64,000 nucleotides of DNA, from assembly GCA_900320405.1 (NCBI GenBank), contig OOHM01000002.1:236461-300460 (forward strand). Direction: 5' to 3'. Made by a program: the position numbers and the translations under genes. Source of the DNA: an uncultured Pseudomonadota bacterium (lineage in GTDB: Bacteria; Pseudomonadota; Alphaproteobacteria; Rs-D84). Below are positions 23,028 through 23,167 of this stretch, piece after piece. The notes under the pieces were generated by a model that was given only the letters and a program-made list of their open reading frames with translations, was not told the origin of the DNA and ran no database searches. How positions within the stretch are numbered: the stretch's first letter is position 1; the number at the start of each line of letters is the position of its first letter.

Positions 23028-23118
23028 CGTACCTTTTTGTCCAGTACTTTTTTCAAAAATTATTTTCAGTAATTTCAATATGTTAGAATTTAGCATAAGT
23101 ACTGGATAAAAAGGTACC
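23028..23118. promoter_or_regulatory. Candidate invertible DNA switch (inverton) copy A: 21-bp inverted repeats flanking a 49-bp core
   Basis: IRL 'cgtacctttttgtccagtact' (23028-23048) and IRR 'agtactggataaaaaggtacc' (23098-23118) are reverse complements of each other (19/21). The core 23049-23097 is the reverse complement of the core at 29230-29279. The outer flanks are co-linear between the two loci. Confidence 0.55.
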
Positions 23119-23167
23119 TTTAATGCCATAATATATTCGTATAAAACAAGCAAGAAAAGGAAGGGAT

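Follow-up and report, generated by a model that had tools for sequence, protein, structure and literature searches.

The stretch of DNA analysed here, 64 kb in length and referred to below as the window, contains two loci, A and B, at which a gene for a small secreted protein is preceded by a leader of closely related sequence. At both loci the leader begins where the upstream gene ends and extends to a Shine-Dalgarno (SD) sequence, AAGGAAGGG, and then to the start codon ATG, which lies at 23168 in A and at 29351 in B. The left limit of leader A is a terminator-like hairpin (22879–22908, scoring on both strands) that ends the upstream open reading frame. The surroundings are those of housekeeping functions, with lepA, acpP and fabF upstream of A, and genes for a CcrM-type methyltransferase, NrdR (nrdR), a lytic transglycosylase, RNase HII and pgk between A and B. 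Identical proteins are found on contigs from rumen metagenomes, the longest being 915,787 bp, and relatives of the family carry the database name “MAG: Alphaproteobacteria bacterium”; the host is, roughly speaking, a rumen alphaproteobacterium with a genome of about 0.9 Mb.

Gene A (23168–23695, plus strand, with its SD at 23157–23165) encodes a protein of 175 amino acids with a signal peptide, a conserved N-terminal domain and a cysteine-rich C-terminal domain. Gene B (29351–29749, plus strand) encodes a family member of 132 amino acids that has no cysteine-rich tail, and is followed by a second family gene, B2 (29820–30593, plus strand), from which an 86-bp deletion in this assembly has removed the SD, start codon and signal peptide. 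The missing stretch, absent from the window at 29796/29797, is found in four other assemblies of locus B (L007–L010), where it encodes the SD, the ATG and the signal peptide (MSGKLIFGLMASVIMT...) of B2; without it B2 starts at GTG. One of these assemblies, L009, has a separate 28-bp deletion at 29896–29923. Across the family the signal peptide is near-invariant and the N-terminal domain conserved, and the cysteine-rich tail is variable. Searches of Pfam, PHROG and PDB sequences gave no significant match to these proteins, and with no Pfam or PHROG match at all the preliminary description of the products as tail-fibre- or adhesin-like is unsupported. In an AlphaFold model of protein A the C-terminal ~31 residues (pLDDT >90) superpose on inhibitor-cystine-knot toxins, the closest being hanatoxin (1d1h, TM 0.71 over 31 residues, but E = 0.4); the conserved N-terminal domain is poorly modelled as a monomer.

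The leaders of A and B are colinear outside an AT-rich core of ~49 bp, and the core itself is in opposite orientation at the two loci, both states being read directly from the sequence. Core A (23049–23097) and the reverse complement of core B (29230–29279) are identical at 45 of 49 positions with one 1-nt indel, and align poorly in the forward sense, which bears out the reverse complementarity of two cores of ~50 bp in otherwise colinear leaders that had been reported previously. The exact 31-nt match reported with it was also recovered, at 29242–29272 in B with its reverse complement at 23055–23085 in A; a 28-mer taken from it occurs exactly twice in the 64-kb window, on opposite strands, compared with zero expected from shuffled sequences.

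Each of the inverted repeats that bound the core is the inner half of a larger, dyad-type site with GTAC at its centre. At locus A the arms (23023–23049 and 23097–23123) are 27 nt long and 89% complementary, and the 21-nt repeat pattern finds only four matches in the whole window, with 0 and 2 mismatches on the left and right of A and 0 and 3 on the left and right of B, where 0.03 would be expected. The left site of A (23012–23048) comprises an outer half, GACTGGTCGATTTAATC (23012–23028), the centre GTAC (23029–23032) and an inner half, CTTTTTGTCCAGTACT (23033–23048), the last two together forming the left inverted repeat of the preliminary description. The right site of A (23098–23132) has an inner half, AGTACTGGATAAAAAG (23098–23113), a centre at 23114–23117 and a weak outer half, CTTTAATGCCATAAT, that overlaps a fixed −10 element. 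The left site of B (29193–29229) consists of GGGTGGTCGAAATAATC, GTAC (29210–29213) and GTTTATGTCCAGTACT, and its right site (29280–29314), which is decayed, of the inner half AGCACTAGACAAAAAA followed by GTAC (29296–29299). The centres are 85 bp apart at A and 86 bp apart at B. Within the window only the inner halves of the dyads are strong, and the repeats of locus B match at 16 of 21 positions and have decayed. Additional half-site matches near 6057–6104 and at 43869 lie within coding sequence and were discarded as chance matches. When the interval from GTAC to GTAC is compared between the loci, 71 of 82 positions are identical with one copy flipped and 53 of 84 in direct alignment. Beyond the centres the two loci run in the same sense, with 26/33 positions identical to the left and 62/68 to the right. 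Exactly one centre-to-centre inversion separates A from B.

These two leaders belong to a larger set. At least seven paralogues are dispersed over one 915-kb scaffold, and the site sequences and their spacing are common to all seven loci compared, namely A, B, C (P0037), E (P0041), and D, F and G (P0026, P0045 and P0064, listed jointly). The shared frame reads TTGGGTGGTCGAWWTAAT-CGTACC-TTTTTGTCCAGTACT, then the core, the inner half-site, and GGTACC-TTTAATGCCATAATATA...GTATAAAACAAGCA...GGAAGGGATATG. A search of genome contigs with the leader pattern GTACCTTTAATGCCATAAT gave one relevant match, in the related metagenome-assembled genome RUG12956 (L026). Two types of core occur. Type 1 is found in A, C and E in one orientation and in B reversed, and a homologous type 2 is found in the forward sense in D, F, G and RUG12956, where it is accompanied by a right half-site of a different type, GGGTGGTCAAAATAAAG. 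Six of the seven leaders therefore have the core in the sense of A, and B alone is flipped. Six of the seven leaders, and RUG12956, have exactly the same left inner half-site and centre, a conservation far above that of the genes themselves, which are ~50% identical at the protein level; A, C and E retain near-perfect repeats of 21–27 nt at a spacing of exactly 85 bp. The position of the module relative to the ATG is fixed, with the two centres at −139 to −141 and −53 to −56.

Orientation was followed across ~16 assemblies, giving 33 locus-assemblies (A 4, B 8, C 4, D 3, E 4, F 5 and G 5), and in the consensus sequences of all 33 it is the same as in the window. The set for locus B includes a second strain that differs by ~1–3% SNPs (L008, L010, L014) and shares the same orientation, so that opposite orientations are seen between paralogues only. 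This constancy argues against frequent fixation of alternative states, and speaks only weakly against switching itself, because a metagenome consensus displays the majority orientation alone. Contigs that end at the repeats (L003, L005, L006, L020 and L034) were considered as a sign of heterogeneity and set aside, the repeat formed by the paralogous leaders and signal peptides explaining these ends equally well.

Differences between assemblies of one locus cluster in the leader, at positions equivalent to 23105–23150 and 29194–29209 of the window. Two assemblies of locus A (L004 and L005) have leader patches identical to the leaders of other paralogues, and in strain 2 of locus B (L008, L010) the left outer half-site is of the A type. 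Gene and distant flanking sequences show no differences in the former and few in the latter. Such patches may reflect gene conversion among leaders or, on short contigs, assembly chimeras. In L014, from strain 2 of locus B, 32 bp (~29281–29312) that include the right site and the fixed element TGCCATAAT have been lost, leaving the gene-facing promoter-like element of the core adjoining the leader. Such a deletion could represent a naturally “locked” variant, or faulty assembly of this 1.8-kb contig.

The promoter-like elements of these leaders are consensus matches, and in DNA so rich in A and T their number is near chance expectation (2 sites in the scan of locus A, where 1.3 were expected). 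Downstream of the right site, and conserved in all paralogous leaders, is a fixed extended −10, TGCCATAAT, at 23124–23132 in A. It forms part of a promoter-like element on the plus strand with TG that reads TGGATA-18-CATAAT at locus A (23103–23132) and TAGACA-18-CATAAT at locus B (29285–29314), and at both loci the −10 is outside the invertible DNA. A second, TTAACA-16-AATAAT, is within core B and points toward gene B (29241–29268, plus strand), where it may act as a promoter; its counterpart in core A, CTAACA-16-AATAAT (23059–23086, minus strand), points away from gene A. In the orientation of B an A/T-rich, UP-element-like stretch, GAAAATAATTTTTTAAAAAAAG (29260–29281), adjoins the fixed promoter, and its location at about −41 to −62 would correspond to the position of an UP element. 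Core A, in the common or forward orientation, contains an IHF-consensus-like motif, TTTCAATATGTTA (23073–23085), together with an extended −10-like TGTTAGAAT that reads TGTTATAAT in leader E. The IHF-like motif is perfect in type 2 cores (AATCAATGACTTA), and one may speculate that an IHF-type bend could help to synapse sites just 85 bp apart.

It had been proposed that orientation switches TAGACA-N18-CATAAT at locus B on and off. That promoter lies at or outside the right site and is shared by both loci in either orientation, which means that flipping the segment cannot simply switch it on or off. What inversion would change is the sequence adjoining the extended −10, which itself stays in place: in the orientation of B, TTAACA-16-AATAAT and the A/T-rich UP-like tract would face the gene, and in that of A they would face away from it. 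Judged from these elements, B would be in a state of high expression and A, C and E in a state of low expression. We favor the more general view that the rare orientation, represented by B and by the left gene of a locus in a second species (L048, described below), confers high expression and the common one low expression, which would parallel the “few ON, most OFF” pattern of Mpi-controlled loci. This view is weakened by the near-chance number of promoter-like matches and by the presence of the extended −10-like TGTTAGAAT in the forward core.

A metagenome search with the left-repeat pattern returned seven contigs, all from the JGI metagenome Ga0310690, which carry the same gene family (N-termini like ...VTTKDYVDN..KQ) behind homologous leaders. 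In this second species each inverted repeat is half of a near-perfect palindrome of ~32 bp, for example GGGTGGAACAAAACGTACGTTTTGTTCTACCC; all sites are centred on AAAACGTACGTTTT and their centres are 85–86 bp apart. Together with the window species and RUG12956 this gives 15 modules, in every one of which the GTAC centres are separated by 85 or 86 bp. The cores of the second species are of two types, X, which is homologous to the window cores through the block TTAGCAATTTCAATG, and Y. On three contigs (L046, L048 and L050) two modules sit between divergent gene pairs and have the middle site in common, and the arrangement of X and Y differs between loci.

Comparison of contig L049 with the reverse complement of L048 reveals a second case of inversion. 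The left outer half-site is identical at 17 of 17 positions, both centres are identical, and on the right the 13 nt of the outer half-site agree throughout, while this half-site and the leader together differ at 4 of 48 positions. Of the 80 bp between the centres 76 are identical when one copy is flipped, compared with 40 of 85 in direct alignment, and the inner half-sites TTTTTGTCCAGTAC and TTTTGTTCTACCC have exchanged sides. The same difference from L048 is seen in L050 and L052. One module has therefore been inverted with its breakpoints exactly at the site centres, inside 13–14 bp of identity. Identity of this length is judged too short for homologous recombination, and we interpret the event as conservative site-specific recombination.

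The second species also supplies a candidate enzyme. When the window, the seven loci and related contigs were searched by tblastn with Hin and γδ resolvase (P0121 and P0152 served as additional queries), the Hin and γδ queries gave a single match, on contig L047 of the second species. The gene (ORF 109–756, minus strand) encodes a serine recombinase of 215 amino acids, P0121, and 53 bp separate its start codon from the nearest (first) site in a Y-type leader. P0121 matches the resolvase profile PF00239 at 3e-30 and HTH_7 weakly, and scores 260.6 bits on NF009949 (“master DNA invertase Mpi family serine-type recombinase”), for which the cutoff is 272. A homologue in Candidatus Enterousia, an alphaproteobacterial genus, is 68% identical, scores 274.6 on NF009949 and carries the same name at NCBI.

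No comparable gene was found near the window loci. With tblastn neither an Mpi-like nor any other serine recombinase was detected in the 64-kb window or in the ~4-kb flanks of the seven loci, which together cover ~120 kb of the ~0.9-Mb genome, in agreement with the preliminary description, which had noted no cognate invertase in the window. Among the best 120 of 7946 Mpi homologues none came from the 915,787-bp scaffold, and the C-terminal 62 amino acids of P0121, used as a query, gave no match. Two further Mpi homologues, P0156 from a human-gut element and P0123 from the rumen, showed no link to the window organism, and no Mpi-like motifs were found beside either. P0123 is flanked by HTH genes and tRNAs, the family leader is absent there, and its contig (L062) shows no synteny with the window. 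Within the window the sole recombinase homologue is the open reading frame at 19818–20822, and the earlier impression that it looks degenerate is supported: it matches the N-terminal and central integrase domains (Arm-DNA-bind_3 and Phage_int_M, with SAM_3) and not the catalytic domain PF00589, scores 20–23 bits on Xer models, and by eye lacks the catalytic Arg and Tyr residues. A tblastn search of the window with XerD returned nothing.

In Bacteroides fragilis the serine recombinase Mpi controls the orientation of 13 regions scattered over the genome, of which seven are polysaccharide promoters, and it can act at a distance (PMC4747536). The modules described here resemble this system in several ways: many short regions are dispersed upstream of genes for surface or secreted products, and a small serine recombinase scoring close to the Mpi family model is encoded beside one module of the second species. 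The relationship extends to the sites. The Mpi repeat consensus can be written ARACGTWCGT. The version used here for scoring, ARACGTTCGTN, is that quoted in PMC8375218, and is resembled by the repeat core of the second species, AAACGTACGT, the Mpi-like motif of its modules; the centre AAACGTACGTT has one mismatch to it. The corresponding 10-mers of the window sites, AATCGTACCT and AAAGGTACCT, match at 7 of 10 positions each, and their outer half-sites are weak. There are also clear differences. The host is an alphaproteobacterium rather than a member of the Bacteroidales, and the genes encode small cysteine-rich secreted proteins rather than polysaccharide operons. The distance between crossover centres is 85–86 bp rather than the ~180–190 bp of Mpi regions, and is below the expected range of ~170–230 bp; related invertons of B. 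intestinalis measure 183–186 bp (PMC8375218). Each site is a full dyad whose TA centre is symmetric, some modules lie in tandem and share sites (L046, L048, L050), and the conserved −10 is outside the invertible DNA. The enzyme gene is seen in the related species; in the window genome both the invertase and the switching are putative.

The Hin, Gin, Cin and Pin systems offer a second comparison. Their sites consist of two inverted half-sites with an A-tract beside a 2-bp crossover. Here too a serine recombinase is implicated and in L047 its gene adjoins one of the sites; the dyad is clear in the second species, and in the window its inner halves alone are strong. The classical systems invert kilobase-sized segments that contain genes and have an asymmetric central dinucleotide, neither of which is seen here; they also use a Fis-bound enhancer, usually inside the invertase gene. 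No invertase adjoins A or B, the adjacency being confined to L047. The title of Patrick et al. 2003, as cited in PMC11602134, likens the B. fragilis repeats to Hin-type sites.

In the fimS element of E. coli and the cwpV and flgB switches of Clostridium difficile, as in the present modules, inverted repeats enclose a short piece of the promoter region in front of a gene for a surface protein. A functional tyrosine recombinase is however absent from the window, the one integrase-like reading frame having no catalytic-domain match, and both the site architecture and the enzyme associated with the relative are of the serine type. The preliminary description had drawn on fim as well as on Bacteroides and Hin-type inversions; the anatomy of a site-specific inversion module and the analogy with the serine systems Mpi and Hin stand, and the analogy with fim does not. 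Shufflons, such as those of R64 (Rci) and of the Bacteroides SusC/D genes (Tsr0667; PMC4747536), provide a parallel for the modules X and Y of the second species, which share a central site and vary in arrangement, although the units here are non-coding leader cassettes of 85–86 bp rather than coding segments and the enzyme family differs.

On balance we lean toward reading the feature as a cassette that belongs to a family of very short invertible modules of the Mpi/Hin kind. An Mpi-type module is preferred over a fim-type one because of the dyad sites of the second species, their Mpi-like motif, the centre-to-centre inversion and the adjoining serine invertase gene. Each module would comprise an AT-rich core of 47–49 bp between two GTAC-centred recombination-type sites spaced by 85–86 bp, or about eight helical turns, in the leaders of a dispersed family of at least seven members encoding small secreted cysteine-rich proteins. 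A small serine invertase of the Mpi family, encoded outside the window and acting in trans, would bind the half-sites as dimers, cleave at the central TA of GTAC, and rotate the DNA between the two centres. We infer that the same enzyme family acts in the window genome. To judge from its sequence, the 85-bp cassette of A and B is probably a small phase-variation switch. Whether it is currently switching in this strain is close to evenly balanced, with a slight tilt toward no. Locus B is probably locked or slow, because its sites have decayed. Against the Mpi reading we count the lack of an invertase in the DNA searched, the constant orientation, the 7/10 motif, the 16/21 repeats of B, the short length and the −10 outside the invertible segment.

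A more far-reaching version, which we regard as possible and rather unlikely, holds that the 85–86-bp cassettes are active Mpi-family substrates, with a length fixed at about eight helical turns and perhaps an IHF-type bend; that some of them, lying between divergent genes, are organized as a tandem, site-sharing and non-coding “mini-shufflon”; that they choose which of the secreted proteins with cystine-knot tails are expressed in gut and rumen Alphaproteobacteria with reduced genomes; and that the system was acquired across phyla from Bacteroidales. If the cassettes are active, they would be the shortest serine-invertase invertons known, and Mpi-type global phase variation would reach from Bacteroidales to uncultured, host-associated Alphaproteobacteria. 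A loop of ~85 bp would then suffice for a serine invertase, with consequences for the minimal geometry of invertasome synapsis, and the phase-variable small cysteine-rich proteins would likely form a host- or phage-facing surface repertoire of rumen bacteria with reduced genomes. Invertons this short, with repeats of 13–27 nt, may escape the settings of read-based inverton finders.

The alternative that survives best is an inverton that has become a fossil, which we consider unlikely though it deserves serious attention. Here the origin is still of Mpi type, but this lineage would no longer have the invertase and each locus would be fixed in its present orientation, which at B is the flipped one, with the sites maintained by gene conversion among leaders and by their overlap with the promoter. 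The empty search for an invertase in ~120 kb, the constancy of orientation per locus across assemblies and two strains, the decay of the B sites, the weak outer half-sites, the divergence of the centre from CGTACG to CGTACC and GGTACC, and the patchwise exchange of leader sequence in L004, L005 and strain 2 of locus B all speak for it. A fossil is less readily reconciled with the near-perfect repeats and exact spacing retained by A, C and E or with a left inner half-site that is invariant in six of seven leaders; moreover, majority orientations in consensus sequences say little about switching, and the search took in ~120 kb of a genome of ~0.9 Mb.

An improbable reading takes the dyads as an array of operators for a dimeric transcription factor, with a phasing of eight turns that would permit looping over the promoter, and the flipped cores of B and L048 as rare accidents without switching. 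Palindromic sites, helically phased at 85–86 bp and coinciding in part with the −35 and spacer region of the conserved promoter-like element, would suit such a factor, as would a constant orientation per locus. The array would leave unexplained the serine invertase gene next to the L047 module, the match of the site core to the Mpi motif (PMC8375218), and independent inversions in two species with breakpoints exactly at the centres within 13–14 bp of identity. The distance from site centre to −10 also varies by 8 bp among leaders (11 compared with 19 nt), which is unusual for an operator.

A MITE-like mobile element inserted either way upstream of genes would account for short units with terminal inverted repeats in many copies per genome, and is very improbable, being ruled out by the fixed position of all copies at the same distance from the ATG in the conserved leader of one family, with zero copies elsewhere in the window and no transposase. 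Least credible of all is a structured leader RNA, a long 5′ UTR hairpin acting as attenuator or stability element: a strong hairpin is predicted for A, C and E (z −5 to −9), and a plant miRNA hairpin matched in Rfam below threshold and spuriously, but four of the seven leaders (B, D, F and G; z −0.6 to −1.8) have no significant fold, which rules it out, and in addition changes from one half-site type to another are uncompensated, Rfam has no matching family and transcription likely starts downstream of the hairpin.

Some smaller observations concern the neighborhoods of these genes. Two tandem paralogous reading frames of ~120 amino acids (19047–19418 and 19434–19799), with conserved cysteine motifs and no Pfam match, precede the integrase-like frame at 19818–20822, which occupies the same place, between two small paralogous reading frames and acpP, in other assemblies (L001 and L002). 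On contig L062 a small palindrome at 3095–3135, CCTAGGACAAGCTGCAAAAACGCGTTTATTTTCCTAGG, followed by a tRNA-like sequence lies beside the gene for P0123, and two small paralogous HTH-like reading frames are found on either side of this invertase gene. In a related species an orthologue of gene A lies next to ccrM behind a different leader (L023, 3840–3970; L054, 1830–1950), in the same orientation in both assemblies. This leader has two sites, GCGTAAAAAAACCAAGGTTTA and GCGTAAAAAAACCTTGGTTTA, that differ in the central AA/TT only and which we take to resemble the hix sites of Hin (AAACCAAGGTTT).
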